The translations under genes were made by a program, and so were the position numbers. From a virus, in IMG/VR virus record IMGVR_UViG_3300035126_000631, positions 1-64,000 of that record: a DNA stretch of 64,000 nucleotides. One strand, written 5' to 3'. Within the stretch, counting starts at the first letter, position 1; each line of letters opens with the position of its first letter. The notes under the pieces are model-generated. The model saw only the letters and a list, made by a program, of their open reading frames with translations. It was not told the origin of the DNA and searched no databases. This document shows, one piece after another, positions 2,959-63,739 of this stretch.

Positions 2959-2959
2959 T

Positions 2960-3475: not shown

Positions 3476-3484
3476 TAACTCCAC

Positions 3485-22425: not shown

Positions 22426-25400
22426 ATGGCTTGGTATGATGACCCAGAAGAAGTCCGTCGCGTCACCGCAGAAGCTCTCGGACTCGGACTAGAGGATCCG
22501 GAATCCGCGGAGGAACCCGACCTCGGACCGCGGCTCAGTCTCAATACGGTCGCCCCTGATGAGTCTCGTGCGGTTGAGGTGACCGAGAAGAAATGGTGGG
22601 AAGATCCGGATGCCGTCGAGGCGGCGATGCGGGAAGCGGGTGTTGCTGTGGCTGCTCCGATGCGGTCGAAACGGTCATTGACTGGAGAAATTGGCGCTGG
22701 ATTGGAACGAGGCACAGACCAGACCCAGGGGCTTCTTTATGGATTCAGCGGACTTCTTGGGCAGGCTATCGGGGTTGAAGAATTGGAGCAGTTTGGTTTG
22801 GAGAATTATGCCCGCAAGATGGAGGAGGCAGCGGAGAACCAAGCCTCGATCCAAGATCCGACCGAGGACATCGACGGGCTAGGGGACTTCGGTCTTTATG
22901 CGGCTGGGATAATAAGTGAGCAACTCCCGCAGCTTTTAATTTCTCTCGGTGGTGCAGGCTTGGGTGGGGCTGCGGCCAAAACAGCAGCCCAGCGCATCAT
23001 CGCCAACGAAGTCGCCAAGCGCACGGCGGCAGGCATGGCCAAGAATGAAGCGGCAAAAGAAGTCGCGCAGCTTGTCGCACAGAACGCGCTGACCGCAGCC
23101 GGAACCGCCGCCAAGCGCGGGGCGGTCGGCGGGGCTTACTTGGCCAACTTCGGCCAGATCGCTGGCGGGAGTTTCGGGCAGATGGCACAGGAATTGGGTG
23201 AGGGTAATGCCGCGCAAGCGGCAGCATTTGCCGCGCCTGGAGCCGCACTCGACACGCTCGGGGAAGTCTTTGTCGCTGGAAAGTTTTTGAAGCCCCTCTC
23301 TCAAGCGCAACGTGCAGCCGTGGAAGGCGTGAAGCCTTTGACCCTCGGCCGCATCGGGGGAGGTCTTGCCGGTGGGGCGGCAAGTGGATCTGCTGTGGAG
23401 GGGCCGACTGAGTATATCCAAACCGGATTGGAGCAAGCGGCCCTCGGATCGGCAGACCCGAATCGCACGGTGGGGGATGTCGTTATGACGCCGGAAGCCG
23501 AACGTGAGCGTCAGATCGCCGCGGCGGCTGGTGCCACGGTCGGCGGTCTTCTCGGCGGTGCGGGTGGTGTGGTCGAAGTGGCGTTCTCCCCGCGGACGAC
23601 CGAGGCGCTCCGGACAAAGAGGCAGCAACAGCAGACCGGAAGCGAATTGCCGCCCGAGCAAAGCCAAGAGCAGGAGCAACAGCAAGAAGCCCCCGCTGAT
23701 GAAGAGTGGTCGGAGCCAATTACGATCCAGAGCCGCAACGAGGAATATAACAATCTCGAATACCGCCAGAACAAGGCGGGTCAGGTGTGGGCGTTCAATG
23801 TGCCAGAGGTGAGCCGCTTCGGAGCATTTGCCATCCCGACCAAATACGGCCAAGGCGTTCTGCTTAATCCTGCGTTCGAAGGTGCTTCGGATATCCGCAG
23901 CGAAGTGAAGGCCAAGCTCGCGGAGATGGCCGATCCAGAGGCGTTCAAGGCACCGCCCGTCACACCGCCGAAGAAGGTCGAGGAGAACCTCGAAGATGCG
24001 GATCTGGTGGAGGGTGAAGAAGTTGCCTCCAACGCCGAGGAGCTTGCCGCTGCGGCCGAGCGCCGCCGTTTACGTGACCAAGAAATTTTGACCCGCGACT
24101 TGGAGTCCGCGGCGGCGACCTTGGCCCGCCCGCAAGAGGATGCCAAGGGCTTCGTCGACAATCTCAAGGAAGGCGACCAAGTCAGTGTGCTGACCGAGGA
24201 CGGCGAAGGTAATGCCTTCGCGATCCCGATGACGTTCGTGCGGCTGAATCAAAACGGCCAAGCCCAACTCCGCAGTGAGCCGGATGAGGATAACAAAGTC
24301 GCCACCCGGCTTTACGATGCAGATGAGTTCAACCGGATCACGACACGTCCGGCCGAGCAAGTGGCTCCCGCCGCCGCGACTACCGGAACTGGCATTAAGG
24401 TGTCGCCGCTAACCGCGCCGATCCGTCCTGCTGCCGAAGGTGAGCAGTTGAGTGAGGCCGAGCGGGCGCAGAATCTTCTCTACTTCAAAGATGTCGAGGG
24501 TTCGAAGATCGATGACAATCTTTGGATCAACTCGGCGCGTGAACTCGGCGTGCCGATCACGCCGGAGACGACGGGTGCAATCGCCGAGCAGGAGATCCGC
24601 AACCGCTTCGGTGTCGAGCGCACTACGACCAAGCAGGATGATCCGGCGAGCCAAGTGCTCATGGACGCTCTCGGGCCGAACCCGACCAGACAGAAGCTCG
24701 AATCGATGACGGGCACGCGCTGGACGGGCAAGGGGAGCAAGTTCACCTGGATGTTGCCGGATAAGCTCGGCGGCAAAGGCATCCCAGTCACGACACGACT
24801 TTTCAATCGTAAGGCTCCGGCCGAGGCGTTGCCGATACCGCAGCGTTCGACGACCCGTGGATTCAAGCCCGAGGAGCAGGGCGGCACGGCTCCGGCTGCA
24901 CCGGACATCCAGACCACAGGACCGGACCTCATTGCCAAGAGCAGCGCGGAATTTGTCGGTGTCCGCAAGGGCGAGAAAAACGAACTTGTCTCTGCCCGTC
25001 CGACCCGCGGGCAGGACAACGCGACTTATCTCCAAGAGGTCGATACCGCTGCCGACACGACGATCCGGCAGATGAACTATCTTGGACAGCCCGTGCTGGT
25101 CACACCGGAGACGGCGCAATCGCTGGCCGAGGCCAACCAATTCTGGACTGAACACGAGCAGCGGCAGAAAGCAGGCACGGCTAAAGTGGATCGCCAGCCC
25201 GTGCGCTTCTATACGCAAGAGCGTTCGGATAAAGACGGCAACCGCAACACTTTCATCACGGGCGTCACCTATGAAGGGCGCACGTATCGTGTCGGCAAGA
25301 CTCCGCAGGAATTTTCCGTAGATCGTGCGCTAACCCAGCGCGGAGCCAAGAGCCGACGCCGAGGCTTGGGGATCTACGATCCGATCCGTATCGCTTCGCC

Positions 25401-28400
25401 GTCCCGCATCGCACGAAGCGAGGCGGGTATGGCATCGGCCAAGACAGAAGCAGGGGATGGTCCGCTGACAGAAGCCCTTCGCGGTGTGCAGGGTCGTGCC
25501 GCGATCGCAGAACTCAATGATGCCGAGAATGCGGTCTATGGCTTCTTCGATGATAAGATCACCAGTCCGATCCTGAATATCCAAGATCCGGCCGTGACGA
25601 CCGAAGTGCGTGACACGGCGCTGGAAACAGCCAGGGGCAAGGTCGCGGCGGCATTCCTCAAAGCGAAGAAGGCCAACCCGAGCGAGAAGACCAAGGTGCT
25701 GCCCGGCCGTCAGCGCACGATCGGCGAAAAGGTCTCCGACAAACTCATCGCCTACCAAGAAGCCAAGCGAGGTCTCGCGATTCAGGCTTTGCGCGACAAG
25801 TTCCGCGGGCTGAGTGAGAAGGCGACCGCAGCCAAAGCCGCAGCCCGCGGAACAGGCGCGGGTAAGGCGCTCAAGATGTCGCCGCAGGGGGCGATGAACC
25901 TCATCACCCGTGCCCGTCGAGGGCAGAAGGCCGGCATCCCCGAGGCCAAGCGTGCAACCCGCGATGAGGCGCTCACTGCGTTGCAGGAACTCGTGGACTT
26001 CGGTGCGCTCGATCAAGAGAAGAAGGACGCGCAGATCAGGCGCATCCTCGATAAGGCCGAGAAGTTCTCCGAGGTCGATCGCGACTTCATGGCCGAGCAG
26101 ATCATCTCGGAGTTGGCCGAAGCGGATAAAGCTCTTGCCACTCAGCAGGGGCGCAAGTATTCGCGCTCGACGGCCGAGGTTGCCCAAGATCGCCGCCTCG
26201 TCCTTTCCACTTTCAATCTCCTCAACGACTCCAGCATCCGCTCGCTCAATCCCTACAACATCGGCAATAGTGCCTTGAGCGCGGCCAAGCGCACGGCGAC
26301 CCGCAAGGGTATGACCCGCGACGAGGTCAGCCTCGATGACGAGAACCAAGGGGCAGGCGATGAGGTGGCGCTAAAGGCCAGCCAGCCGGACGACAAGGGC
26401 CGGATCGATCAAGCCAAGCTGGCCGAGAGGGGCAAGCGGGTGGGCGTTGAGGACGCCGAGGGCGGGGAAATCGCACCGTTTACCAACAACATAGAGGAGG
26501 CTCTCAACCTGATGGACGAGTTGCCCGACTCTGACCGAGACCTTTTCCTGCGTTATGCCGGTATGGAGATTGAACGCCAAGCGGGCGAACGCAGTCAAAC
26601 TAACCAACCACTCTCAGAAGTCGACCGACTCTGGGCCGGAAGGATAAAATCATACCTCGATGGAAAAATTAACAGATCCCAGCTTGAATACTTCAGAAAC
26701 GAAGAGCGTCGACTCGTCGAACGCACCACTCCCAGAGCGACCCCCGCTGAACTTACGAACCTTCGCCGCGGCGTATCAAATGAGGCGGCACTTTCCGGAG
26801 TTGCTGAATCGCGTGCCGCCCGAACTCCGGACACGGCTCCAACAGGGCGAGCCGAGCGTGTTGTCGGATCTCCTGCGGACCCAGCCGGAACTGTTCAGGA
26901 ATCAACTGCTGGGCAGACTGGAGGACGAGGCGTTCAGCCAACTCCTCGCCGGACAAGAGCCGTCGCCGCAGCAGCCCAGCGAGACTTCGCCGGAGCCATC
27001 CTTGGCCTAGACGAGGCCGAGACCGCGGCTCTGCCGCAAGGGACAGTTGACCGCGTCTACCAGTCCTACCTTGCTACCTTTGATGGCGTCCTCGCGGAGC
27101 AGAGTAATAATCCCCTAACTGCATCCGCCGCACCCGCCGCCGACACGGTGACGGCCGACGGCAAGAAGATGTTCGAGCGGTTCGCCGCCGCACGCCTCAA
27201 TCCCAACCAGCAGCGTGCGGCCATCATCCGCAGCAACATGGCGCAAGCCTACCGCGCCGGACTCTTCGACGAAGATCCGGTCGTGTCGGCCATCAACAAG
27301 ATCGCCACCGACAAGACGCAGCCGATGAACCTCCGGCTCATGGCCAAGGAGTTCGTCAAGAATGCCAAGCGCGGCGTGCGCTTCGACCGCGTCGTCCTCG
27401 ACATCGGACGCTTCACCAAGCCGGGCAACAAGCAGACCACTTGGGCCGGACTCTTCAGCCTGACGCCCGAGGGCGCTCCGGTCGTCTCGATCAACCTGGA
27501 CAACCTCCACGACAAGAACAGCGTCCCGCTCACTTTCCTCCACGAACTCCAGCACGTCGTCATCCGCGACAAGGTGCGCCGCGCTATCCCGCTGACCCGC
27601 GCCGAGGAACAAGCCTTGGCCCGTCTGGAAGATCTCCGCAGCCAAGCGGTCATTGCCGCCGCCCGTCAGCAGGGCATTGAGGTCGGAGCCACACCGAACG
27701 TCAACGCGCTGGCCGAACGACTCTACGCCCTGACCGATCCGAATAGCACGCAGAGCGGAGCCGCCGTCGACAACCGCCGCCTCGCCGGACTGGTCAACTT
27801 GGAAGAGTTCGTCATCGAGATGATCGGCAACCCCGACATGGTGCGGTTGCTCTCTGAACTTGGGTTCGGTGAAGCCCGCACCGACGGCAAACGCTTCAGC
27901 CTGACCGGCGCTCTCCGCAATGCTTGGAACGCGGTCGTCGAACTTATCACCGGAGCTAAAGTTGACCCAACCAGTCCCTTGGCGATGGCGTTCAAGGATA
28001 GTTGGACGGTCAACTTCGGCACGGCTCGCAATCCTAACATCACCGAGATCAAAGCGAGCAAACGCCTGGCCGACCGCCAGCAGGCCCAGACAAGGCAGCA
28101 GTATGTCGAAGGCGAGATCGAAGCCCGCGATATGGCCGGAACGACCCGCGATCGCAACCGCATCATGCAGGAGATCACGGGTCCGGCCGACACGCAGACC
28201 GAAGCCATGCGTTCCTCGATGCTCGATGCCGCCCGCAACATGACCGAGGATCAGTGGGTCGCCGCAGCCCGCGCTCAAGGATTCGACTTCGTCGATCCCG
28301 GTGCCGTCTACCGCCAAGCCAGAGCAGAAGCGGTGCAAGCTGCACCGGAACAAGCTACAGGCGACACGGTTCAGGTTGCAGAGAGCCGTGCCGTAGCTCA

Positions 28401-31400
28401 ACCAAGTGGCCAAGATCCTGAGAAGAGCATACAGGAGCAACTCGCAGAGAAGAGGCAACAACTCGCAGAGCTTCGAGCAGTCAATCGCGAAGAAACTGGA
28501 CGTAGACTTCTTCAATTAGCTGAAGCTCGTGGAGAAAACTTTTTTCAACTTCCGAAAAACCTTTCAAACAGCGAAGACCTATTGACTGTTTTAGAGTCGA
28601 CGGGCGCTCGGTTTTCAATGGTCAACATGAGACCTCCGGAGCAGGTGGAGGCTGGAGAATCACGTGAGATCATCCTTGGCTCACGCAACTCTGTTGTCCT
28701 CGGCCGTCGTGCCCTCTACGAAAAAGAAAACGGAGAGGTCTCATCCGGAGACGTTGTTCGTAAGACGAACAGCGCAGTATTCATCCAAGACGGCAAAGAT
28801 GTTGTGAGAATCCCCGCGGAAAGAGTTGTCGGGATCGACGGGACGATAATGATTAAAGAGGAACCCGATCCATTTGGTTCTGTCTGGCCCGGTAAAGTAT
28901 GGGCTGTTGATGCTTCAGACGGAGATACCAATGCTATTGTCGATTCCACGCGCATCTATCAAGGGTTGTATCAATGGGCTGCAAATACAGGGCAAAAGAT
29001 TGTCCCAGACAGCGCAGGGACTTCGCCGACTGGAAGCTACCGTCGCAACGCACAGCAGATCTCTAGTGCTCTTCGCCTACAATCGGCTGAACACTTCATA
29101 CCGACAGAAGCTCAGTTGGACTTAATGTTCCCTGAGATAAGCACTGATTCAGAAAAAGTAACCAAATGGTTAGGCTCTACTTTAGAAGAGAAGGTCGGGG
29201 CTTTGGCACTGGCCGAAGTCGGCTTCGTTGAACAGCTTCTCCCTGATCTTGTCTCACTTAGTTATGACCCAAACACTGATAGCTTCTTGGGAGAAGGCAC
29301 ACCCATTAGTAGAGACGAAGCAGGAAAACGACTTGATAACCTCCTTGCGGACCCGGAAGAGCAAGACCCAACTGATCCTATCCGAATCGGAGAGGCAACT
29401 CTTGTCAGGTATCTTGCAGCGAGATCCGCGCTTCAAGGGAGCTTCAGAGCAGACGCTCCGGTCTTGCGCTCTGAATCTACTTCTTTAGACAAGATCGCCT
29501 ACAGCCGTGCCGTCGGTCGCCCGTTCGCATCCGACACGGCGACGACTTACAACGGCAAGACCTACACGCGCCCTGGGCTGATCTTCGGCGAGAACGCCAA
29601 CCTCGATCCCCAGGCTACGGAACTGGTCTCCATCCTCAAGAGGGTGAAGCGTGCGGCCGAGCAGTATGCCAATCTCAAGGGGCGGGAACTCAATCGCCTC
29701 ATCAAGAAGTATTACAAGGACGAGCCGGTTCCGACCGACCTTATCAACGATGCGCTGGGTAACCTCGACAACCCGCTGACCGATCAGCAGTTCGACGAGA
29801 TCAAGCGGCTTGAATTGACCGACCCCGAAGCGGCGGTAGCCAAGCGAATCGCTTACCTCGGGGAGAACCGCGCACGTTTCCGCACCGAGCGTCAGGCTCC
29901 GGCCTTGCTTGCCCTGCCGGAAGAACTGGCCGAGTTCCTGCGTGAGATCGGCGGAAGCCGCGAAACTCCGGGCGACCTTTATCGTCTGCAAGAGGAAGCC
30001 CTCAAGCTCGGTATTCCGAAAGGTGACATGGCGACGGCTTTCACTGAGAACCTCGGCATCTACCTGACCCGTAGTTACAACGCCTTCATCGATCAAGAAG
30101 GATGGGAGCGCACGCTCCGCGCCGAAGACGCCGCGCTCGGCGAGCAGTCGCGCATGGGGCAGTTCCGTAATCAAATCCGTTCCACGTTGATCGGCCAGCG
30201 GGCCGACGATCTGCTGACCAAGGCCCAAGAAGAGGGCCGCACGCTCTCCCGCGCCGAAGCCGAACGCCGCGCCAAGGAAGGCACGACGACCGAAGAGGTC
30301 GATCAAATGCTGGAGAGCTACATCGCCTACACCAAGGAAGAGGCTTCCTCGGAATCCTTCTCCGGTCTGCGTCTGCCCGGTCGCCAGAACATCAAGAGCT
30401 TGGAGCAGCGCAAGCGGCTCTCCGACGCCCTGCGCGAGTTCTACGGCCAAGTGGAGAACCCGGCGGTCAACTTTGTCACCAGCTACGCGAAACTTTCCTC
30501 GCTCGTCGCCAACCATAAGTTCCAGACCGAACTGAAAAACCTCGGACTGAAAGAAGGCTGGCTCTGGGATCAGGAGAAGAACGTCGGACAGCGTCCTCCT
30601 TCCGGATACGAGCGCATCGCCGCCGACAACGACAAGTCCCTCAAGGTCTTGGCCGGACTCTACGCCCGCTCGGATCTTGTCCGTGGCTTGCGCGAGACGT
30701 TCCCGCCGAACTCGATGGAAGCGGCCCAGTGGTGGCTGCATCCGTTTATGAAGCTCACCGGACTTTCGATGGGCCTAAAGACTGTCGGCTCGATGGTATC
30801 CCAGATCCGCAACTACTGGAGTAGCTACGCTCCGATCATTGCCGGCGGCAACATGACGATCGCCGACTGGTTCCGCCCTGAGTGGCGCAAGAATTGGAAG
30901 GAGGCGCATGAGGTCTCGATCGCCAACGTGTTCCGTAAATACGGCGGCGACCGCCAGAAGATGACCAATCGGATCAAACGCCTCTACGAACTTGGCGTGA
31001 TGGGTGAGTCGCTAACGGTCGGTCTCCTCAACGACCTAACCCGCCTCGGGAAAGATGCCTCGATCAGCGACGAGCAGTTCTTCAACAACTTCGAGAAGAT
31101 CCTCAAGAAGCCGGGTCGCCGGGTCTGGAATGCGACCAAGCAAGTCTGGGAGAAAGCCGAGCAAGTCTACGGCATGACCGACGACATTTTCAAAGTGCTC
31201 ACCTACCTCTCGGAGTTCGACAAATACCAGAAGGTCTATCCGAATATGTCGGAGTCCGAGCTTGAGAAGAAAGCATCCGACATCGCCCGTGACATCCACT
31301 GGACGTATTCCAAGGCTCCTGCGGCGGTCAATGAACTCAAGAAGTTCCCCTTCATCGCGCCGTTCGTTACGTTCACGACCGAGACGATCCGGATCACGGC

Positions 31401-32511
31401 CAACCTCGGCAAGCTGGCCATCAACGAGCGCAAAGAAGGCCAGCGCCTTCGCGAGCAGGGATTGCGTGAGAACAATGCGGAACTGGTGCGCCAAGGCGAC
31501 GAGCTTCTCAAGATCAGCAACAAACGTATGCGTGGTATGGCGGCAGTCGCCTTCGGTCCGTGGGCCGTCGGTTCTTTAGCTATGACCGCAGCCGGATTCT
31601 CCGGAGACGATGAAGAAGACCTCCGCCAGTTCCTCCCCGATTGGCAGAAGAACAGCCAGATTCTAATCCTCGGCCGCAACGGCTCCGACATTAACTATGT
31701 CGATGTCTCCTACCTCGATCCCTTTGAGGTCTGGAAGAAGCCGATGACTGCCTTCATGCGCGGGCTCGGGCGTTCTGAGAACGTCGAAGAGTTCTTCACC
31801 GAAGCGGTGGTCGGAGCAGCCCTCGAAGCCGCCCGCCCGTTCACCAGTGAGCAGATTCTTTCCGGCGCAGTTATGGATGTGATGCGGAACCGTGATGCCA
31901 ACGGCCGTCAGGTCTACAACCCGCAGGATACGGGCACGGCGATCGCCACAGCGGTCGGTGCTAAACTCGGTTCGGCATTCACCCCAGGGACGATGGACAC
32001 CGTCGATCGCATCTATAAGGCCAGCGCCGGACAGATGAGCGAGACGGGTCGCGCCTACCAACCATTCAATGAATGGGGCTCGCTGGTCTTCGGTCAGCGT
32101 GTCAGCGCGGTCGATGCCGAACAAGCCCTTGGCTTCAAGGCTTCGCAGTTCCTCCGCGCCCGTCGGGATGCCCGCAGCATCTTCAACCGCGACTACCTCT
32201 CCCGTGGTTCACGTTCGGAGTCCGATGTAGTAAGTGCATACCAGCGCAGCAACGCGGGTCTCCGCGATGTGACCGAGCGACTCCGCCGTGAGTATATCGC
32301 CGCGCTTAATCTCGGCGTCTCACCCGCCAAAGCCCGCAGCGTTCTTCGCGCCTCCGGACTGGACCGCGACTCGGCCCGCATGATCTCGACGGGCATCTAC
32401 CGCCGTCTCACCCCGAGCGAGGAGCAGGACCGCATGGCCGCACCGGATCGCAAGCGTGCCGCCCGCCAAGCAATTGCCGAGACCCCGCAGCGCGAAGTCC
32501 TGTTCCCGTAA
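22426..32511 (+). CDS. giant internal virion protein, large polyvalent-protein type, with a zincin (HExxH) domain
   Basis: 3361 aa, no Cys seen; N-terminal Gly/Ala membrane-like region; FLHELQH with downstream LEEF; C-terminal PFIAPFVTF / LPDWQKN / YLDPF region typical of large ejected proteins. Confidence 0.75.
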   Translation: MAWYDDPEEVRRVTAEALGLGLEDPESAEEPDLGPRLSLNTVAPDESRAVEVTEKKWWEDPDAVEAAMREAGVAVAAPMRSKRSLTGEIGAGLERGTDQTQGLLYGFSGLLGQAIGVEELEQFGLENYARKMEEAAENQASIQDPTEDIDGLGDFGLYAAGIISEQLPQLLISLGGAGLGGAAAKTAAQRIIANEVAKRTAAGMAKNEAAKEVAQLVAQNALTAAGTAAKRGAVGGAYLANFGQIAGGSFGQMAQELGEGNAAQAAAFAAPGAALDTLGEVFVAGKFLKPLSQAQRAAVEGVKPLTLGRIGGGLAGGAASGSAVEGPTEYIQTGLEQAALGSADPNRTVGDVVMTPEAERERQIAAAAGATVGGLLGGAGGVVEVAFSPRTTEALRTKRQQQQTGSELPPEQSQEQEQQQEAPADEEWSEPITIQSRNEEYNNLEYRQNKAGQVWAFNVPEVSRFGAFAIPTKYGQGVLLNPAFEGASDIRSEVKAKLAEMADPEAFKAPPVTPPKKVEENLEDADLVEGEEVASNAEELAAAAERRRLRDQEILTRDLESAAATLARPQEDAKGFVDNLKEGDQVSVLTEDGEGNAFAIPMTFVRLNQNGQAQLRSEPDEDNKVATRLYDADEFNRITTRPAEQVAPAAATTGTGIKVSPLTAPIRPAAEGEQLSEAERAQNLLYFKDVEGSKIDDNLWINSARELGVPITPETTGAIAEQEIRNRFGVERTTTKQDDPASQVLMDALGPNPTRQKLESMTGTRWTGKGSKFTWMLPDKLGGKGIPVTTRLFNRKAPAEALPIPQRSTTRGFKPEEQGGTAPAAPDIQTTGPDLIAKSSAEFVGVRKGEKNELVSARPTRGQDNATYLQEVDTAADTTIRQMNYLGQPVLVTPETAQSLAEANQFWTEHEQRQKAGTAKVDRQPVRFYTQERSDKDGNRNTFITGVTYEGRTYRVGKTPQEFSVDRALTQRGAKSRRRGLGIYDPIRIASPSRIARSEAGMASAKTEAGDGPLTEALRGVQGRAAIAELNDAENAVYGFFDDKITSPILNIQDPAVTTEVRDTALETARGKVAAAFLKAKKANPSEKTKVLPGRQRTIGEKVSDKLIAYQEAKRGLAIQALRDKFRGLSEKATAAKAAARGTGAGKALKMSPQGAMNLITRARRGQKAGIPEAKRATRDEALTALQELVDFGALDQEKKDAQIRRILDKAEKFSEVDRDFMAEQIISELAEADKALATQQGRKYSRSTAEVAQDRRLVLSTFNLLNDSSIRSLNPYNIGNSALSAAKRTATRKGMTRDEVSLDDENQGAGDEVALKASQPDDKGRIDQAKLAERGKRVGVEDAEGGEIAPFTNNIEEALNLMDELPDSDRDLFLRYAGMEIERQAGERSQTNQPLSEVDRLWAGRIKSYLDGKINRSQLEYFRNEERRLVERTTPRATPAELTNLRRGVSNEAALSGVAESRAARTPDTAPTGRAERVVGSPADPAGTVQESTAGQTGGRGVQPTPRRTRAVAAAAQRDFAGAILGLDEAETAALPQGTVDRVYQSYLATFDGVLAEQSNNPLTASAAPAADTVTADGKKMFERFAAARLNPNQQRAAIIRSNMAQAYRAGLFDEDPVVSAINKIATDKTQPMNLRLMAKEFVKNAKRGVRFDRVVLDIGRFTKPGNKQTTWAGLFSLTPEGAPVVSINLDNLHDKNSVPLTFLHELQHVVIRDKVRRAIPLTRAEEQALARLEDLRSQAVIAAARQQGIEVGATPNVNALAERLYALTDPNSTQSGAAVDNRRLAGLVNLEEFVIEMIGNPDMVRLLSELGFGEARTDGKRFSLTGALRNAWNAVVELITGAKVDPTSPLAMAFKDSWTVNFGTARNPNITEIKASKRLADRQQAQTRQQYVEGEIEARDMAGTTRDRNRIMQEITGPADTQTEAMRSSMLDAARNMTEDQWVAAARAQGFDFVDPGAVYRQARAEAVQAAPEQATGDTVQVAESRAVAQPSGQDPEKSIQEQLAEKRQQLAELRAVNREETGRRLLQLAEARGENFFQLPKNLSNSEDLLTVLESTGARFSMVNMRPPEQVEAGESREIILGSRNSVVLGRRALYEKENGEVSSGDVVRKTNSAVFIQDGKDVVRIPAERVVGIDGTIMIKEEPDPFGSVWPGKVWAVDASDGDTNAIVDSTRIYQGLYQWAANTGQKIVPDSAGTSPTGSYRRNAQQISSALRLQSAEHFIPTEAQLDLMFPEISTDSEKVTKWLGSTLEEKVGALALAEVGFVEQLLPDLVSLSYDPNTDSFLGEGTPISRDEAGKRLDNLLADPEEQDPTDPIRIGEATLVRYLAARSALQGSFRADAPVLRSESTSLDKIAYSRAVGRPFASDTATTYNGKTYTRPGLIFGENANLDPQATELVSILKRVKRAAEQYANLKGRELNRLIKKYYKDEPVPTDLINDALGNLDNPLTDQQFDEIKRLELTDPEAAVAKRIAYLGENRARFRTERQAPALLALPEELAEFLREIGGSRETPGDLYRLQEEALKLGIPKGDMATAFTENLGIYLTRSYNAFIDQEGWERTLRAEDAALGEQSRMGQFRNQIRSTLIGQRADDLLTKAQEEGRTLSRAEAERRAKEGTTTEEVDQMLESYIAYTKEEASSESFSGLRLPGRQNIKSLEQRKRLSDALREFYGQVENPAVNFVTSYAKLSSLVANHKFQTELKNLGLKEGWLWDQEKNVGQRPPSGYERIAADNDKSLKVLAGLYARSDLVRGLRETFPPNSMEAAQWWLHPFMKLTGLSMGLKTVGSMVSQIRNYWSSYAPIIAGGNMTIADWFRPEWRKNWKEAHEVSIANVFRKYGGDRQKMTNRIKRLYELGVMGESLTVGLLNDLTRLGKDASISDEQFFNNFEKILKKPGRRVWNATKQVWEKAEQVYGMTDDIFKVLTYLSEFDKYQKVYPNMSESELEKKASDIARDIHWTYSKAPAAVNELKKFPFIAPFVTFTTETIRITANLGKLAINERKEGQRLREQGLRENNAELVRQGDELLKISNKRMRGMAAVAFGPWAVGSLAMTAAGFSGDDEEDLRQFLPDWQKNSQILILGRNGSDINYVDVSYLDPFEVWKKPMTAFMRGLGRSENVEEFFTEAVVGAALEAARPFTSEQILSGAVMDVMRNRDANGRQVYNPQDTGTAIATAVGAKLGSAFTPGTMDTVDRIYKASAGQMSETGRAYQPFNEWGSLVFGQRVSAVDAEQALGFKASQFLRARRDARSIFNRDYLSRGSRSESDVVSAYQRSNAGLRDVTERLRREYIAALNLGVSPAKARSVLRASGLDRDSARMISTGIYRRLTPSEEQDRMAAPDRKRAARQAIAETPQREVLFP

Positions 32512-37421: not shown

Positions 37422-38450
37422 TTATCTGGTTGTGGAGTTATTACTCAAGCGGCAAGTGAGGTCGTGGAAGGCGACGGCGGCGCACTGGGGCACAACGCCG
37501 TTTCCTGCCAGACGTAACTCGTCCCAGCGCGAATCGCAGGACACGCACAACTCGGCATAAGCCAGCCGATTGGCAGTCCCATCAAGGCTTCGCAAAACCT
37601 CGGATTCAGCTTGGCCTTCACCAGATAGCCACCCTCGGCCTGACTCACATCCTGCCCGAGTGACTTCTGCTTTCTGCCGACCGCCATCCCAGCTTTGCCG
37701 TCCCCCGCGTTCGGTGTCGCCCAGCAAGACTCGGGGTGGTTCCCAGTCATGCTGCTCTTCGCCCGGACGGGCGGGCCAAGGATGCCCCCCTCCCGATAGG
37801 CTTGGACTGCCACATCCAAGGTGTCCATCGAGAGCTTCCCGTTCCGTATGCGGCCCCCTTGGTAGCCACCCTTCGAGTCCCGCGCCGAGGCGGTGGGCCA
37901 GGATAAAGACCCTGCGTCGTTGGTGAGGCGCTCCCGCATCGACTGACGCCGAGTATAGTCCCGCCTCTGCTCGGTAACCCACGCGCTCCAATTCTCGGAG
38001 GACATGGAGCAGAACCGGAGTGCCGGCAGGGTCGCTCCACCCGTCTCCCTTGAGCTTGGCCGAGACGATGCCTTCGACGTTCTCCAAGAAAACAGCGGTA
38101 GGTCGTGCTCGGCGGATGCCGTCGAGGATGAAGGGGAAGAGGTGTCTCGGGTCTTCATCTCCGGCGCGGACTCCGGCAGCACTGAATGGCTGACATGGAA
38201 AACCGCCCGAGATGATCGAGACTCCGGCGAACTCTTCCCAAGGGAAAGTGCGGAGATCAGGCCAGATCGGAGCCGCATCAAGTTGCCCGCCCTCCATGCG
38301 CGAGAGAAGTAACTCGCACGCGAAGGCTTCGATTTCACTGTAAGCGACTGTCCGCAGACGTTCGCCAACGACTCTACGGATTCCGAGGTCAAGACCTCCA
38401 TATCCGGTGCATAGACTGATGTGTGTGATGGTAGGATCCACATGGTTCAT
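37422..38450 (-). CDS. C5-cytosine DNA methyltransferase, main frame (motifs I-VIII and X)
   Basis: SLCTGYGG, SEIE, GGFPCQPFS, FLENVEG, APHQRRRVFI, LAGNGVVP. Confidence 0.9.
   Translation of the reverse strand: MNHVDPTITHISLCTGYGGLDLGIRRVVGERLRTVAYSEIEAFACELLLSRMEGGQLDAAPIWPDLRTFPWEEFAGVSIISGGFPCQPFSAAGVRAGDEDPRHLFPFILDGIRRARPTAVFLENVEGIVSAKLKGDGWSDPAGTPVLLHVLRELERVGYRAEAGLYSASVDAGAPHQRRRVFILAHRLGAGLEGWLPRGPHTEREALDGHLGCGSPSLSGGGHPWPARPGEEQHDWEPPRVLLGDTERGGRQSWDGGRQKAEVTRAGCESGRGWLSGEGQAESEVLRSLDGTANRLAYAELCVSCDSRWDELRLAGNGVVPQCAAVAFHDLTCRLSNNSTTR
37445..38443 (-). CDS. overlapping alternative-frame MTase partner (TRD-like repeats plus motif IX)
   Basis: WPTASARDSKG, WATPNAGDGK, LNPRFCEALMGLPIGW; open for 332 codons inside the MTase gene. 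Confidence 0.7.
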   Translation of the reverse strand: MWILPSHTSVYAPDMEVLTSESVESLANVCGQSLTVKSKPSRASYFSRAWRAGNLMRLRSGLISALSLGKSSPESRSSRAVFHVSHSVLPESAPEMKTRDTSSPSSSTASAEHDLPLFSWRTSKASSRPSSRETGGATLPALRFCSMSSENWSAWVTEQRRDYTRRQSMRERLTNDAGSLSWPTASARDSKGGYQGGRIRNGKLSMDTLDVAVQAYREGGILGPPVRAKSSMTGNHPESCWATPNAGDGKAGMAVGRKQKSLGQDVSQAEGGYLVKAKLNPRFCEALMGLPIGWLMPSCACPAIRAGTSYVWQETALCPSAPPSPSTTSLAA

Positions 38451-51056: not shown

Positions 51057-53414
51057 TTAAAATGGATCATTCGACTCCGGCTCCGCCGTCTCCGGGGTCG
51101 GCTTGGTCAGCCGGTATTTGTGGAGCTTGGCCTTGCCGCAGCGTTTGGCGATCAACTCGACGTTCGGGTCACCTTGGGTCTGGAGTTCGGCGAGGCGGCG
51201 TCCGAGGACGCGAACCGGCCACTCACGGGTCAGGGAGACGTTGTCGAAGACATCGTTGAAGGATTGGTGCAGTTCGACCGCGGTTCCTTCCCACGGTTCG
51301 TCGGTGCCACGGCGCTCCCACCAAGCGTTGAGCGTGTCGCGCAATTCGGCGGTGCGGCTTGAGGCTTCGATCTTCTCGCGCACTTCTTGGGCGATGTAGC
51401 TACGGATGAAGTAGCGGTTGGCTGCGTCGATGTATTTCGGTGGGATATCCCACGCCTTGAGCCAAGCGAGGAGGGCGGGGAGTTCGGATTCCACGTCCTT
51501 GAGTTCATCGACCGTCGGGCCTTCCTCGAAGGTTCTCATAGCCAGCGCGATGATCTTGTCCTCATTCGAGATGTTGAGCGCCGGCACGGCCTTGATTGAC
51601 ACCGGATCGTCGTTGGCTGCGATGACCACACGGCCGCGCCACTCGACCATGATGGGGGTCAGGTATTTCTCGTGGTATTTATGGGTGCCGTGGGCGACGA
51701 GCTTCTTGATTGCGCTCGCGTAGCGGTTGAGTTGCGCCTCGGATTCCGCGGCACGAGAGTCATCGATGATGGCCAGTGGCGACTGGAAGAGGTCGGCGTT
51801 GAATCCGTTGCCTTCGCCCGAGACGATCGAGGAGAGATCCGCGTAGCCGCCCATTGCGGGCTTGAGGAACTTCTCGATGAAGAAGGTCTTATAGCAGTGG
51901 ACCGGACCGACCAGGATCATGGCTTGGCCCATGCAGAGTTTGCCACGTTCCGCGGATTCGTAGAACCGTTTGAACCACGCGAGGAAGATGTCGCGGTATT
52001 CATCGGAGGCGAAGACGTTGTCGAGGATGGCCGCGTAGCGTGGGAAGCCTTCGCCCCAAGCCCCGGCGGTCTCGGCCGCTTTGACGATATGGACGTTCTT
52101 GGCGGTGTTGAGGTATTTCTTGCCGCCTTCGAACCAAAGTTCGTTCTTGTTGTAGAGCGACGGTCCTGCACCGTCCACGCGACGGTGTTCGCGAATGAAG
52201 GCTTTGGCGCGGTCCATCGGTGACATGGCGGCACCCTTCGGGGCGCGGTCACTGAACCCGCGGCATTTGAGTTCGCTGGACAGCATCGCGACCATTTCGT
52301 ATCGCCAAATCCCGTCGTCGGCTTTCATAAAGAAGGTTTTGCCGTCGTAATATATGTCGTCAAACTGTCCGCTCTTGTTCGCATTGGTGGACGGTTTGGA
52401 CACCTCTGGTGAGGTGCTATCCCCGTTTTCGGCGGCTAAAGCGTCATTTGTGCGGTCCTCGGTAAGGGGGGCGGCAATTTGACCCCCTCCTTCTAAACCC
52501 GTGGATTTCGACGGGTTCACGCGCCCAGCCTCCGGGTTGAAGTAGATGAGGGTCTGTGCCTTTCCGGTGTCTTTCCTCATGCACCCTGGCACACGAGTCA
52601 GGCGCACGGCCGACATGGCAGCGGGATCGGCACCGAGCGGGACGAGGACATCGGCAATCTCGGAGGCTTTCTCCAGATACTCGGCACGGTTTTTAGTATT
52701 TACGCGGACGAGAGCGTGAGCCGACTTCGAGCCGGAGGTCGTGACCGAGACGATCGGGAGGTTGAGATTGGAGAGCACACGTAGCCATAGTTCGAGATCG
52801 ACCGAGTCGGATTCGATGAGGAGGTATTCGTAGGCCACGAGATTCTCTTCGGCCCGGCGGGACTTCTTGCCGAGGCGCTCGATCGCTTTGAATTGACCGT
52901 CGACCGGATTGACCATGATCCATGCGCCCTCTGTGTTGTTGGCGATGATTTGATCGACGGCCAGATCCGGCACCTTGTCGTGCCACACCAGCTTCCCCTG
53001 AGTCTGCTGATCGACGAAAACGATGTTATGCTTGCCGCCGTAGAGACGACGGAGGAACTCGGAGGTCGAGACATCGGCTGTCGGGATGGGTGAGGAGGCT
53101 TTGAAATCCTCGATCGAGAGCGGGCCTTCTTTGGTCAGTTCGGTCAGACGATCCTCATCCTTCTCGCGCTTCAGTGAAACCTTCGGGCGCGGCTCGATGA
53201 GACCCTCGGCCTCGGCGCGGACGTTGGCGAGCGTGTCGACGATCTCGCGTGGCTGTGGGTCACGCTGGAGGTGGTGCGTGATCCATTGCTCGATGAAGGC
53301 ATCGTCATAGGCGTTAGCAACCAGCGCGTGCGCTGCGCCGAACATCCATGTGTGGCATCCTTGGCCGGAGGTTGGGCAGGGGTTGAGTCCGAGTTCTTCA
53401 GGTGTAGGTGACAT
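51057..53414 (-). CDS. primase-helicase (AEP-like primase plus SF3/D5-like P-loop domain)
   Basis: LLIESD, TSGSKSAH, RLTRVPG; then GPVHCYKT, FNADL, IIDD, HEKY, IAAND. Confidence 0.75.
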   Translation of the reverse strand: MSPTPEELGLNPCPTSGQGCHTWMFGAAHALVANAYDDAFIEQWITHHLQRDPQPREIVDTLANVRAEAEGLIEPRPKVSLKREKDEDRLTELTKEGPLSIEDFKASSPIPTADVSTSEFLRRLYGGKHNIVFVDQQTQGKLVWHDKVPDLAVDQIIANNTEGAWIMVNPVDGQFKAIERLGKKSRRAEENLVAYEYLLIESDSVDLELWLRVLSNLNLPIVSVTTSGSKSAHALVRVNTKNRAEYLEKASEIADVLVPLGADPAAMSAVRLTRVPGCMRKDTGKAQTLIYFNPEAGRVNPSKSTGLEGGGQIAAPLTEDRTNDALAAENGDSTSPEVSKPSTNANKSGQFDDIYYDGKTFFMKADDGIWRYEMVAMLSSELKCRGFSDRAPKGAAMSPMDRAKAFIREHRRVDGAGPSLYNKNELWFEGGKKYLNTAKNVHIVKAAETAGAWGEGFPRYAAILDNVFASDEYRDIFLAWFKRFYESAERGKLCMGQAMILVGPVHCYKTFFIEKFLKPAMGGYADLSSIVSGEGNGFNADLFQSPLAIIDDSRAAESEAQLNRYASAIKKLVAHGTHKYHEKYLTPIMVEWRGRVVIAANDDPVSIKAVPALNISNEDKIIALAMRTFEEGPTVDELKDVESELPALLAWLKAWDIPPKYIDAANRYFIRSYIAQEVREKIEASSRTAELRDTLNAWWERRGTDEPWEGTAVELHQSFNDVFDNVSLTREWPVRVLGRRLAELQTQGDPNVELIAKRCGKAKLHKYRLTKPTPETAEPESNDPF

Positions 53415-53431
53415 ATTGAGTGGTGGAGTTA

Positions 53432-54808
53432 TTATTTACGGTAATGTTTGGATACGATGGCTTCGGCTCCCAGCGGGAGGTCCGAGGCCCAAATTGGTGG
53501 GGTCGACATGATTTCTTCGATCACTTGGCGGTGATCTTCGGCGTCATATTCATCGACGAGGACGACGACTTCATCGTGGATACGCATGAGGATTTCATAA
53601 CCAGCGTCTTCCAGTGCCATGCAGCGGTCCATGAAGACATCACGGGCAAGCGCCTGCGTGGCATTTTCCGCCAGCAAGCCCCCATACAGCTTTACGTCCA
53701 TGAGCTTCCCGAGTCTCGGGAGCTTGGCGACGATGTTGCCGGTGATGCGCCGAACGTCGCGGTAAACGAGTTCTCGTCCGGAGGGTAGGGGAATTTCCAA
53801 AGTCTTGTCGTTTGGGTCGGTGGCGATGCGGAGCGCACGATCGAGCTTGGCCCACAGTGCGGTGATCTTCGGAGACGACTCGCGGTAGGACTGCACAATT
53901 TGTTGCGATTCCTCGAAAGATATGTCGAGTCCGGCCAGCATCTTGGCGACGAGTTGGAACTTCGCCGCACCGCAGCCATAACCAAGACCAAGCACACGGG
54001 CCTTGGCGAGAAAGCGCATCTTCGGATCCACTTCCTTGAGTGGGCGGGGGTCGTTGTATCCCATCGTCGCCCTGGCGTGCGCCTCGTAGATGTCGATACC
54101 GGAGGCGATCAGTTTGAGGAGATCCTTGTCGCCCGCGAGGTAGGGGAGGCAGCGTGCTTCGATCTGGGCAAGATCGCAGATGACGAGTGTATTCCCCGCG
54201 GGAGCCTCGATGAGGTTGCGGATATCCACGCCGGCCACTTCTCCTTTGGGGATATTCTGGGCGTTCCAGCCGCCCCCTCCGCTATCCCGTCCGGTTGTGG
54301 CACCGAAGTATTTAAGCTCGTAGCCCATCCGACCGTCGGGCCGCGTCCGGGCAATCATCGCCTGCACGGTCTTCAAATGTTTGTTGGCCTTACGGTAGTC
54401 GCGCACAGCGCGAACCCACGGAAACTTGTCGGCGAACTCCGCTTCCCATGCCGCACCCTCGGGATCTTTCTCCGCAAAGGACTTCGGTGAGCGGATACCT
54501 TCCTTCTCGCACTGGTCGCGGATCGCTTGCAGGGAGAGGGGAGGATATTCACCACCGATCCAAGGAAGAAGAGCCTCGGTCCGGCGCTTCTCCTCGATGA
54601 GCTTGGCTTCCGCGGCCTTGAGCTTCTCCATGTTGACTGGCACCCCGCGCATTCCCATCCGGCGCGTCATAGCCGAGATCCGCCACTCATGGTCGGGCAT
54701 CTTATGGCCATGCTCCTTCCAGAGCATGAAGGTGGCCTTCGCGTCATGGAGCGCGTAGCGGGCGACTTCTTTTTTGAAGTCGTTGGTCATGTAAGGGCTC
54801 TTAGGCAT
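53432..54808 (-). CDS. DNA polymerase family A, C-terminal part (ExoIII plus polymerase domain)
   Basis: YALHD, TGR, NAQNIP, motif A DLAQIEAR, motif B KARVLGLGYG, motif C IHDEV. Confidence 0.92.
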   Translation of the reverse strand: MPKSPYMTNDFKKEVARYALHDAKATFMLWKEHGHKMPDHEWRISAMTRRMGMRGVPVNMEKLKAAEAKLIEEKRRTEALLPWIGGEYPPLSLQAIRDQCEKEGIRSPKSFAEKDPEGAAWEAEFADKFPWVRAVRDYRKANKHLKTVQAMIARTRPDGRMGYELKYFGATTGRDSGGGGWNAQNIPKGEVAGVDIRNLIEAPAGNTLVICDLAQIEARCLPYLAGDKDLLKLIASGIDIYEAHARATMGYNDPRPLKEVDPKMRFLAKARVLGLGYGCGAAKFQLVAKMLAGLDISFEESQQIVQSYRESSPKITALWAKLDRALRIATDPNDKTLEIPLPSGRELVYRDVRRITGNIVAKLPRLGKLMDVKLYGGLLAENATQALARDVFMDRCMALEDAGYEILMRIHDEVVVLVDEYDAEDHRQVIEEIMSTPPIWASDLPLGAEAIVSKHYRK

Positions 54809-55043
54809 CGGGTTTCTTCAATACAAAGGGTCTTGGTAGGAGGATCGGCCGCTGTCCCGCTTTCCGGCTGGTTGTCTTGCGGCGGTAGCCGATCAGGGCC
54901 AGGTCGTCTCCCGACTTCGCGATGATTGGGATGAGCCGGCCCTGCTTCACGAGGCGCTCGATCTTCGGCATACCTTGGCGTTGTTTTGCTTGGTTGGTGG
55001 CTGTTCGTTGCACGACAGACCCGTCTTTCAGTCCGTAGCTCAT
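54801..55043 (-). CDS. small basic protein inserted in the polymerase locus
   Basis: 80 aa; overlaps both neighbours (ATGA and ATGCCTAA). Confidence 0.6.
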   Translation of the reverse strand: MSYGLKDGSVVQRTATNQAKQRQGMPKIERLVKQGRLIPIIAKSGDDLALIGYRRKTTSRKAGQRPILLPRPFVLKKPDA

Positions 55044-55228
55044 CGTCTTACGAAGGTCTGGTCACTCAGCCACATGGCGTTGAGATGCTCGTGAGACATG
55101 TCTGCTTTCCAGAAGAAAGCCGACTTGCGTTGGGTTTTCGGATCGGGTTCGAAGGTGACGTAGCCATCGTTGTCGTGACCGAAATCCTCCGGTGTCTGCC
55201 ATCCGCTGATCGCGGTGAATACGCGCAT
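55040..55228 (-). CDS. 62-aa protein inserted in the polymerase locus
   Basis: MRVFTAISGW...; TAATG coupling to the exonuclease fragment. Confidence 0.55.
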   Translation of the reverse strand: MRVFTAISGWQTPEDFGHDNDGYVTFEPDPKTQRKSAFFWKADMSHEHLNAMWLSDQTFVRR

Positions 55229-55725
55229 TAGTCCTTTGTCCATATCATCCCTTTCATATTGGTTCGGGTGTCTTTCTTGATTTTGATTTTGAGCAGTTCG
55301 GCCGAGGCTTGGGCCAGACTCCTGGGGTAGCCTAGATAGGCCGCGAGGTCGGCTGTATCGAAGACGAAGCGAGGCTTCACTGGAGGCACCGTGCCGGACT
55401 CGACGAGCGCGTCGAAGAGCGTCAGGTCGAAGGCAGCGTTGTGCATGATCCAGTTGAGCCCGTCGCACTCGTCCCACGGCGCGTCGAAGGGTGATCCGAC
55501 ATAGGCATCCCCGTCGTCGAAATACATGCTTACCATGTAAATGTCGGTAGCGCGGGCGTAGTGCCATGCCCCCATCGTGGTGACTGAGGTGTCGGTGTCG
55601 TAGTAGCTCTCGAAGTCGATTGCTACGGAAGAGCACTGGGAGACTGCGTTTTTCGCGCAAACCCCGCCCCCCAGCGGAGTTGTTTGTGTTTTAATTGTGC
55701 AGTCCCCCAGTAAAGTCGTTGTCAT
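55228..55725 (-). CDS. DNA polymerase A N-terminal 3'-5' exonuclease fragment (ExoI and ExoII only)
   Basis: AIDFESYY, HNAAFD, FDTADLAAY.G.PRSL. Confidence 0.85.
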   Translation of the reverse strand: MTTTLLGDCTIKTQTTPLGGGVCAKNAVSQCSSVAIDFESYYDTDTSVTTMGAWHYARATDIYMVSMYFDDGDAYVGSPFDAPWDECDGLNWIMHNAAFDLTLFDALVESGTVPPVKPRFVFDTADLAAYLGYPRSLAQASAELLKIKIKKDTRTNMKGMIWTKD

Positions 55726-56962
55726 AGTTCGTAGCATGGTCGCGTGGGGTCGAACGCTGCCGGCGGTGGAAGCTGTGAGCGTAGCCACTCGATCTCGGTG
55801 AGAAGGTCTCCAGCAAAGAGGCAAAGGTCATCGACCAGTTCCTCTTGGGCGGCGATTTCGTCAATCAACTGCCCAAGCGTTGTGAAAGAATCACGCGGCC
55901 CGAAGTTGATGCGCCCGATGGTGTATTCTGCGTTCATAGTATTTTTGCCGTTGCTGCTTTGTGAATTTTCGCTTTTTGGATTTCGGAGTTGTCCGGTGCC
56001 AGTTTCCGCAATACAGGCAGAGATAGATGTCTTGCCCGGGAAACCGTGCCTGCTCCTCGGTCAGGTAGGCGCGTTTTGTCATGCAGCCGGATATAAAATC
56101 GGTCTTCACAACTCATTCCTCCTCCTCCTCTTCCGCCTTGCGATCCGCTTCACGTTCTTCTTCGCAGTCACACTCTCCGTAGAAGCCTTCGCAATACTCG
56201 CAGTATTGTTCCATTGGGTCGTTGCGTCTGGCCCAGTAGTGAGCTTCTTCAGCGTCCATGCCTTGCGCTTCGTCGCGGTCCTGATCTGGGTCACTCGGCA
56301 TTTTGATCCTCCCGTAGCTTATAGCCCATCGCCCATGCGAAGATGGCTCCGTAGGTTGCGAGTCCGCCGAGCATAATGCCGACGGCGAGACCGATGAGAA
56401 ACCAGCCGGCGCTCATGCTGTCCTCCAGAAACGAAGGCGATCAACGCCCTCTCCGTCAGTGACGAGTCTAGTCGCGAACTTCTTACCGGAGCGACGGCCA
56501 GTGCTTGAGGCAATGGACCGCAGCCCATTGAAGCCTTCACAAGTCGAAGCCGGATAGACGAACGAGTCGCCGACGTTGAGCTTGGATAAAAGCCACGACA
56601 GCGGGTGTTGATACCGCGACTGTTCACCGGGCTTCTTGTCCGCGAGTGGAACGTCCTCATCGATGACGATTTGGTAAGTCCTCACTTTGCGTCCCCTCCT
56701 TTAGCAGCGAGCCATGCGCCGAACCCGAGAAGTCCTAGCCACGAGAAGAATAGTCCGATGGCCGCGGTCATTTGATCCCCCCGACAAATTCACGCTGGCG
56801 CTCGGTCAGCAGATTTTCCTTCCACTCCTGTAACTCCCATTGCGCGAGTTCTTCCGACATCTGGTGGCGCTTATGAACCTCCAGATAGGCGGAGCCAAAC
56901 CCGACAACCACGGCGGTGGTGACAGCCATCGCCATGACGGAACAGAATCGACGTGCGGTCAT
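55722..56962 (-). other. run of small hypothetical CDSs in the replication operon
   Basis: 55722..55937, 55891..56109 (YLCLYCGNWH), 56113..56301 (CxxC), 56413..56685 (DNA-binding-like, LNVGDSF) and a TM-containing ORF ending at 56768. Confidence 0.55.
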
Positions 56963-62405: not shown

Positions 62406-63620
62406 CTACCAAGATATTAAATGCGTCAATCCTTGTTTCTCCGCATATGCACGCACTGATATCGGTGAGATATTAAACCACTCTTCGGCGGCACGTTTAC
62501 TCACCAAGGCTACGTAGTGTTTTGATAACATCTTGATCGAGGTTCCTCCGTGGTAGGCGGTGTTGTGTGGATTTTGGAAAGCTGCAAGGTGGTAGCTCAA
62601 GAACGAGTGTCGGAGGATATTGTCCTCCCATCCGGCTAGACCGACTTGCTTGAGCTTGGCTACGTCACGGGAGATATTTCCGACTTTGCGCTCGGTCATT
62701 ATTGGGCCGTAATCCGGAAAGGTCGCTAGGTTGAGCCATTCGAAGAGACAATCAGGGGTGAAGATGTGCCGCGGCAGAGTCTTTTTGGCGATCACCCGGT
62801 CAACGTGCGCGGTCTTCTCCTCAAAGTTGAAGTGCGCTTTGGTCATCTGAGTGCATTCGTTGCGTCTTGCCCCGCCGAACGCCATTGTCGCGACATAGGC
62901 CAATTCCTTGGGTTTCACTACGATGAGGAACCTCATCAACTGCTCCGGCGTGAATACAGGGTAGTTACCTTCCGGTATCGCCATGAGCGTGACTTGGTCG
63001 GCGATCGTCTGGTGGTCGTCTGCGAGGTAGCGCCGTTTTTTGGCGAAGTTCTCGATCGTCCGGTAAAAGCTCAGAAACTTGTGTTGCGTGTAGGGCGCGA
63101 AATGAGATTCCCGCAGCCGACGCTCTAGGCTTTGTGGAGTGATCTGCTGCATCGTCTCTTTCGGGAACCACGACTTCAAGGTTCTCACTTGGGAATTGAC
63201 CGTCTGCTCGTGGTCTTTCGAGAGCTTCTTTATCTTGATGTCGGCGACCAACTCATCGCAGATCACGCCAAAGTTCTTCCCCTTCGAACTCAAAACGTGG
63301 AACTTCCGGAAGAACTCACACGCCTTGTGGAGTTGATGGGGGGCCACGCTTTTCTCGCACTCCAGTAGGTAGACCAGACGGGCTGCATCGACCTTGGTGT
63401 GTTCTCCCTCGGCGCGGGAGAGATGTCGGACCTTCTGCTTCGCTAGGTCGATCGCCTCGTTCTTGTCGGCGCGTGTGACCCGGAAGCGTTTGTCTCCGAC
63501 ATACCAAGTGAGGCGGTAGGCTGGGTAGCGCCCGGTGGATATTGCGTTTATCTTAACGACTGAATCTCCCAGCCGAACTTCTGTGCCTTTTTTCGATTCG
63601 AGAACCTTCAAATTGTCCAT
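62406..63620 (-). CDS. int: tyrosine recombinase/integrase
   Basis: GGARRNE (R), AKK (K), NILRHSFLSYH, KHY (Y). Confidence 0.85.
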   Translation of the reverse strand: MDNLKVLESKKGTEVRLGDSVVKINAISTGRYPAYRLTWYVGDKRFRVTRADKNEAIDLAKQKVRHLSRAEGEHTKVDAARLVYLLECEKSVAPHQLHKACEFFRKFHVLSSKGKNFGVICDELVADIKIKKLSKDHEQTVNSQVRTLKSWFPKETMQQITPQSLERRLRESHFAPYTQHKFLSFYRTIENFAKKRRYLADDHQTIADQVTLMAIPEGNYPVFTPEQLMRFLIVVKPKELAYVATMAFGGARRNECTQMTKAHFNFEEKTAHVDRVIAKKTLPRHIFTPDCLFEWLNLATFPDYGPIMTERKVGNISRDVAKLKQVGLAGWEDNILRHSFLSYHLAAFQNPHNTAYHGGTSIKMLSKHYVALVSKRAAEEWFNISPISVRAYAEKQGLTHLISW

Positions 63621-63739
63621 GTGGATTATGACCAGAATTGGGTCGAATCGTTCAAAATTCGACATAACCGCATATAAAAATAAACAAAAGATCCTTCGTA
63701 AACCGCTGTCCTACAGAGAAATGGACAATTTGAAAATAT

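Follow-up and report, generated by a model that had tools for sequence, protein, structure and literature searches.

Two genes for one phage DNA polymerase, with the cut inside the proofreading domain

An uncultured phage of ~74 kb encodes its sole DNA polymerase, PolA, as two genes, and the cut between them lies within the proofreading domain. The phage is represented by IMG/VR record IMGVR_UViG_3300035126_000631, of which positions 1 to 64,000 (64 kb; hereafter the window) were analysed; the complete record of 74,043 bp (CheckV: complete) has one PolA match. The ExoI, ExoII, and ExoIII motifs of the exonuclease are all present and are divided over two chains, referred to here as the N-fragment and the C-fragment (Table 1). 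Since ExoI and ExoII are on a separate chain from ExoIII, proofreading can be active only if its site is assembled in trans, and the most likely form of PolA is a non-covalent complex of two chains that share the proofreading site. The N-fragment would contribute the β-sheet core of a DEDDy 3'-5' exonuclease, including the Asp and Glu of ExoI and the Asp of ExoII, the C-fragment would contribute the polymerase domain together with the long ExoIII helix (Tyr, Asp) to which it is fused, and docking of the N-fragment on this helix would rebuild the proofreading site. The arrangement is stable and inherited, and is neither an assembly error nor a fresh disruption. A preliminary description of the locus had placed ExoI and ExoII in the upstream reading frame and ExoIII with the polymerase motifs in the downstream one, linked by coupled gene overlaps, and all of these coordinates and features hold.

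The position of the cut is defined by intact single-chain relatives of 580–603 aa (57–66% identity). The N-fragment aligns to residues 1–133 of these proteins, and the alignment places the cut at ...W-x-K-D / M-T-x-x-F (the slash marks the cut), with 0 residues lost and 6 added (MPKSPY). The intact relatives read ...NMKGKRWKD/MTPEF..., whereas the N-fragment of the window ends in ...NMKGMIWTKD followed by a stop and the C-fragment begins with MPKSPY/MTNDF.... Alignment to intact homologues, which the preliminary description had proposed, has therefore yielded a clean junction between ExoII and ExoIII with no residue missing. M134 is invariant in 64 intact relatives, so that an in-frame start codon was already present at the break. 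The leader of the C-fragment has a Ser codon that is AGC in some loci and TCN in others, with Ser kept throughout, which indicates that the leader is translated, and the TAA within ATGCCTAA terminates whichever gene precedes the C-fragment. At its other end, the N-fragment has an N-terminal extension of ~33 aa that is not found in intact relatives, and no alternative start codon was found nearer to its conserved core.

The structural context of the junction was obtained from an AlphaFold2 model of the intact relative P0038 (64 sequences), with a predicted local distance difference test score (pLDDT) of 92.8. This model resembles the Klenow, Bst, and Aquifex Pol I structures with a TM-score of ~0.7 and Foldseek E values of 1e-20 to 1e-23; the Klenow-like fold is thus shown for P0038 rather than for the window's own chains. 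In the model, the bond between D133 and M134 falls in a short turn that follows a small helix and precedes the ExoIII helix H136-163, and the latter carries the ExoIII residues Tyr145 and Asp149. The N-fragment accordingly corresponds to the β-sheet core of the exonuclease and holds three of its five DEDDy residues, and the ExoIII helix stays on the polymerase chain.

Profile searches identify the C-fragment through PF00476 (E 1e-28, 100.5 bits vs a cut-off of 34.3) and phrog_17 (E 2e-76), and the N-fragment through phrog_17 (DNA polymerase family; E 1.5e-8). Among GenBank phages, all matches of the C-fragment are below 30% identity and the N-fragment has no match. Host leads come from relatives at 41–43%, found in a metagenome-assembled genome (MAG) of Opitutales (41%) and in an unclassified MAG, and from a Planctomycetota-rich cluster of the ESM Atlas (0.86).

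The split is common to more than 20 independent contigs from many different samples, namely the IMG/VR loci L001-L015, L026, L036, L051, L058, L060, and L070, and the metagenome contig L080. Scans of IMG/VR and of metagenomes for the gene context of the P0044/P0048/P0101 and P0105 lineages yielded the main clade only. Among protein clusters, 37 consist of a C-fragment alone whose start coincides with the junction or lies a few residues from it, and 33 of these 37 belong to three confirmed split lineages; 48 clusters of 100–177 aa are stand-alone N-fragments. The DxE, NAAFD, and YALxD motifs are kept at every locus. Selection was assessed by pairwise Nei-Gojobori dN/dS (omega) at dS ~1, which gave 0.19 for the N-fragment core, ~1.1 (neutral) for its 33-aa extension, 0.19 for orf67, 0.06 for orf80, and 0.11 for the C-fragment, orf67 and orf80 being the small genes between the halves. 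With its recurrence in more than 20 independent contigs and four reading frames under purifying selection, the split arrangement is far beyond chance. The same two observations confirm the earlier proposal of a stable operon rather than a fresh disruption, and a misassembly is ruled out because so many independent contigs share the split.

The two PolA halves are arranged in one operon with the intervening genes and the downstream primase. Stops and starts overlap in this operon, and coupled translation is probable. The 419 nt between the PolA halves are filled by two open reading frames (ORFs), and the successive gene overlaps are ATGA, TAATG, ATGA, and ATGCCTAA. The first of these is formed by the N-fragment start and the stop of a 71-aa gene, whose homologue adjoins polA on the upstream side in the intact-polymerase locus L041 and in 20 split-clade loci. 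A consensus scan found no terminator-like site on the minus strand between 55937 and 51057.

Several observations weigh against a functional two-chain enzyme. The match of the N-fragment to the exonuclease family PF01612 (E 0.0016, 18.7 bits) is under the gathering cut-off of 23.6, and the omega of its core exceeds that of the C-fragment. In addition, the Shine-Dalgarno sequences before orf80 and the C-fragment appear weak when judged by eye. The preliminary description had proposed a two-chain polymerase with the exonuclease site in trans; the placement of ExoI/II and ExoIII on separate chains stands, and chain assembly and exonuclease activity are inferred from conservation. A published precedent favours assembly: for the split PolA of S-SBP1, the exo and pol products as modelled with AlphaFold2 can be superposed on an intact PolA (PMC10201439).

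A functionless N-fragment is one alternative, in which the C-fragment acts alone as a proofreading-deficient polymerase in the manner of CCPol or KlenTaq. PolAs without most of the exonuclease domain and yet with its last helices do exist, CCPol being an example (PMC10201439). However, the N-fragment core has an omega of 0.19 at dS ~1 and is unbroken in more than 20 loci, the ExoI/ExoII carboxylates are all retained, the C-fragment likewise retains its ExoIII Tyr and Asp, and an N-fragment is found on every contig that extends far enough upstream of a C-fragment. A relic is thus quite unlikely. It is similarly improbable that the N-fragment has taken up a separate role, for instance together with orf67, and has ceased to dock on the polymerase. 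The ExoIII metal-site residues are known from D501 and Y497 of Klenow, and a DEDDy nuclease without the ExoIII Asp and Tyr misses part of the metal site. Even though orf67 follows the N-fragment and not the C-fragment in split loci, it is equally adjacent to intact polA, and the N-terminal extension that the N-fragment has gained evolves neutrally.

The third alternative is that the halves are rejoined by RNA splicing of an intron with ORFs, by protein trans-splicing of a split intein, or by ribosomal bypass. Polymerases of relatives bear in-frame intein-like insertions elsewhere, so that mobile elements do visit polA. At the junction, however, an Rfam scan found no intron model at E<=1 in window positions 53000-56500 and none at E<=0.1 in five relatives, and the gap is coding throughout, ranges in length between 353 and 3450 nt, and holds ORFs under purifying selection, of which orf67 is an independent gene in intact-polymerase phages. 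Moreover, the N-fragment has no extra residue and the C-fragment only its 6-aa leader, which are too short for intein halves. Ribosomal bypass in T4 gene 60 spans ~50 nt, and the gap far exceeds this distance. Rejoining is thus highly improbable, and splicing and bypass, both of which had been put forward as alternatives at the outset, appear excluded as far as sequence analysis allows. Other candidates were also rejected. A split intein is ruled out by the junction alignment, and a homing endonuclease remnant by the lack of any Pfam or PHROGs match for orf67, orf80, and 10 island ORFs of four relatives, in which no endonuclease domain was found; the initial impression of no intein ends and no homing-endonuclease motif is thereby supported. 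A programmed -1 frameshift from the N-fragment into orf67 would be compatible with the two frames, but their overlap contains no slippery heptamer and varies between relatives.

The preliminary description attributed the division to two small genes; the comparison of loci shows a gap that is a variable, fully coding island of 0.35–3.45 kb with about 2–10 small genes. Between the N-fragment stop and the C-fragment start lie 353–357 nt in window-like loci and 692–1033 nt in several others, and the distance reaches 1318 nt in L004, 1837 nt in L007, and 3450 nt with ~10 small ORFs in L008. The first small gene, orf67, follows the N-fragment in 23/23 split loci that reach that far, and the stop is overlapped in 21 of these; L004 has an 11-nt gap, and L007 and L058 share an extra 172-aa ORF at this point. 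In the intact-polymerase loci L037-L043, an orf67 homologue (45–52% identity) lies directly 3' of polA and is followed by a C5 DNA methyltransferase and the primase, and in the distant L071 (polA 38% identity) orf67 lies ~565 nt downstream of polA. The adjacency of polA and orf67 thus predates the split. The split arose by a rearrangement from the order N-C-67-X to N-67-X-C, most simply perhaps through a duplicative insertion, after which the original copy would have been lost. A microhomology model for this rearrangement, based on ATGAAA in the loop and at the 3' end of polA, was rejected owing to its mismatch with the actual break.

The ORF described earlier as encoding 62 aa is real, but its start is most likely the upstream ATG at 55243, which overlaps the N-fragment by 16 nt and gives 67 aa. 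In relatives, the first small ORF starts at an ATG or GTG inside the N-fragment end (MD(K/Q)GLL...) and the second ATG is mostly lacking; the 67-aa start is preferred because the upstream start is conserved in relatives, most of which are without the second ATG. The AlphaFold2 model of orf67 (pLDDT 88.9) has two helices and four strands, with no fold match (best Foldseek E 0.6; best VIA-align Z 3.5). The ESM Atlas gave weak leads only for orf67 (0.86, in a Planctomycetota-rich cluster) and orf80 (0.76). No PolA-orf67 fusion was found among longer proteins. In P0169-P0174 (e.g., L010:3240-3632), orf67 is fused in frame to an extension of ~62 aa that begins with a segment resembling a signal peptide or transmembrane helix (ALVALA..PFSAQA). 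In a tblastn alignment, the orf67 homologue at L014:3312-3497 is interrupted by a stop or frameshift and may be a pseudogene or contain a sequencing error.

The second small gene behaves differently from the polymerase halves. Three complete intact-polymerase genomes lack it, as does the genome of L004, a split-clade member that is 97% complete, and it does not always adjoin the C-fragment. Its identity is decoupled from that of the polymerase: in L001, orf80 is 54% identical vs 99% for the polymerase, whereas in L011 orf80 is 99% identical vs 83% for the polymerase. This pattern of 99% vs 54%, seen in the comparison with L001, L002, L011, and L012, implies a recent exchange of orf80. Hence, orf80 is a mobile island gene that the phage can do without, and its absence from L004 and the intact-polymerase genomes shows that it is no required subunit. 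The earlier proposal of a subunit role is thus not upheld for orf80, and the idea of tunable fidelity found no supporting evidence. In the islands of L004, L007, L008, L010, and L012, many genes start with MS(E/D/N)(T/H)PET... and carry a coiled-coil motif of the ERERDEA type without a Pfam match; these genes look like a small paralogous family multiplying at the island.

Phylogenetic trees of the C-region were built with FastTree (116 rows) and IQ-TREE (31 rows). The 31 split C-fragment rows (the window and 30 clusters) form one clade in the 116-row tree, and the trees contain two split lineages besides this main clade, P0105/P0111 and P0044/P0048. The intact P0101 groups with P0044/P0048 (100/99) and is nested between P0044 and P0048 less firmly (84/70), and the intact P0029 clade is a neighbour in the trees. 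The stand-alone N-fragments P0164 and P0167 end right after W-D/N-E and were seen on contigs of 46,127 and 5,270 bp, as were P0105 and P0048, respectively; this match shows that the two extra split lineages are real. The N-fragment tails and C-fragment leaders also differ between split lineages, the pairs being TKD and MPKSPY, GPSS and MPTKRPPKIA, and PAAAA and MKL. An approximately unbiased (AU) test rejects the monophyly of all split forms (p = 2e-7), and at least three changes between the split and intact states have therefore occurred at one bond. These changes are either independent fissions or re-fusions. The P0029-type intact proteins have a loop (...VPKRKRMDNDF) similar to the split leader (MPKSPYMTNDF), and this similarity hints at re-fusion. 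The chances are about evenly balanced that the bond before the invariant Met is a natural point of fission and fusion, broken or rejoined at least three times, with the exonuclease site formed from two chains and the gap serving as a hotspot for accessory genes under the expression of the replication operon.

The S-SBP1-like PolA of T7-like cyanophages is likewise made from an exo-side and a pol-side gene, with no splicing element and with non-covalent assembly inferred (Czernecki et al. 2023, NAR; PMC10201439). In S-SBP1, the cut is described as separating the exo and pol domains, originates from a frameshift, and leaves overlapping genes with nothing between them (PMC10201439). In contrast, the cut in the window divides the exonuclease domain itself, with ExoII before it and ExoIII after it. 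The halves are separated by 419 nt in the window and by as much as 3450 nt in relatives, and the gene order has changed. The LUZ24-like phages (Bruynoghevirus) have a matching layout, annotated as 'DNA polymerase exonuclease subunit / part II', with an exonuclease gene of ~170 aa, 8–10 small ORFs (~2.3 kb), and a polymerase gene. Unlike the window, LUZ24 gp25 has ExoI, ExoII, and ExoIII (YCLQD) together on the first chain, which leaves the active site undivided. In addition, gp34 and gp36 of LUZ24, two later pieces with the annotation DNA polymerase, flank an endonuclease gene. BLASTP found no significant similarity between LUZ24-like proteins and the window fragments, and the LUZ24-like split would be analogous and not of the same lineage.

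Two-gene PolAs described as 'split DNA polymerase' are also known from the OM43 phages MEP401 and MEP402 and from an uncultured marine cyanophage lineage (PMC10580990; bioRxiv 10.1101/325100). MEP401/402 have a small ORF between the polymerase genes, for which the authors proposed an intron without testing it (PMC10580990; bioRxiv 10.1101/325100). Genes fractured by homing endonucleases or split inteins likewise produce an essential replication enzyme from two polypeptides (Dassa et al. 2009, PMC2677866). In contrast, the scans of the window and of island ORFs from four relatives detected neither an endonuclease gene nor an intein half. Further examples of genes in pieces are Aeh1 nrdA/mobE and T4-like gp43A/B.

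The coordinates of the polymerase locus and of other window features are listed in Table 1. Split C-fragments of relatives carry in-frame insertions of ~300 aa at two or three sites of the polymerase domain, after FGAH / GGGGWN in P0009, P0011, P0027, and P0111, and after LLAEN in P0015 and P0024. The insertions are not recognized by Pfam, and their boundaries look intein-like, with a Cys...GDHEV start and a ...TGN/C or ...AHN/C end. The distant L071 has an interruption of ~870 nt (2823-3694) near the polymerase C-terminus.

Table 1. Features of the split polymerase locus and other window genes mentioned in the text.
Feature	Window position	Strand	Remarks
71-aa gene (MNAEYTIGRINFGPRD...)	55722..55937	(-)	directly upstream of the polymerase; synteny anchor
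PolA N-fragment, 165 aa	55228..55725	(-)	ExoI DFE (D-x-E), ExoII HNAAFD (N-x-x-F-D); ends ...NMKGMIWTKD and stop
N-terminal extension of the N-fragment	55627-55725	(-)	
orf67, 67 aa (MDKGLMRVF...)	55040..55243	(-)	ancestral downstream neighbour of polA
orf80, basic small protein, 80 aa	54801..55043	(-)	conserved core is the last ~56 aa; mosaic, dispensable
PolA C-fragment, 458 aa	53432..54808	(-)	start MPKSPYMTNDFKKEV; 6-aa leader MPKSPY, native Met, ExoIII YALHD (Y-A-L-x-D), thumb, palm, fingers
Primase (DUF5906 / phrog_2597)	51057..53414	(-)	18 nt downstream of the C-fragment; common transcription unit
C5 methyltransferase-like gene	37422-38450	(-)	intact-polymerase relatives instead have a methyltransferase between orf67 and primase
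Virion structural protein, 3361 aa (phrog_22602)	22426-32511	(+)	
Integrase (phrog_1)	62406-63665	(-)	

Split phage PolAs are already known from S-SBP1-like, LUZ24-like, and OM43 phages, and it is the cut point and its repeated use that are unusual. New at the window locus are the cut between ExoII and ExoIII, the gene-order origin, the variable island, and the repeated fission or fusion at one bond. For annotation, the 'hypothetical proteins' of ~165 aa (48 clusters) would be polymerase subunits, and the 458-aa proteins would not be truncated genes. The locus offers a naturally validated split site in a Pol I-type DEDDy exonuclease fold, which may be useful for protein-fragment complementation and split-polymerase engineering. 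Moreover, the occurrence of intact and split forms in close lineages makes the effect on fidelity of separating the proofreading residues directly testable. The fission of a phage replicase gene can stem from a rearrangement of gene order, for which neither a frameshift nor a homing endonuclease would be needed.

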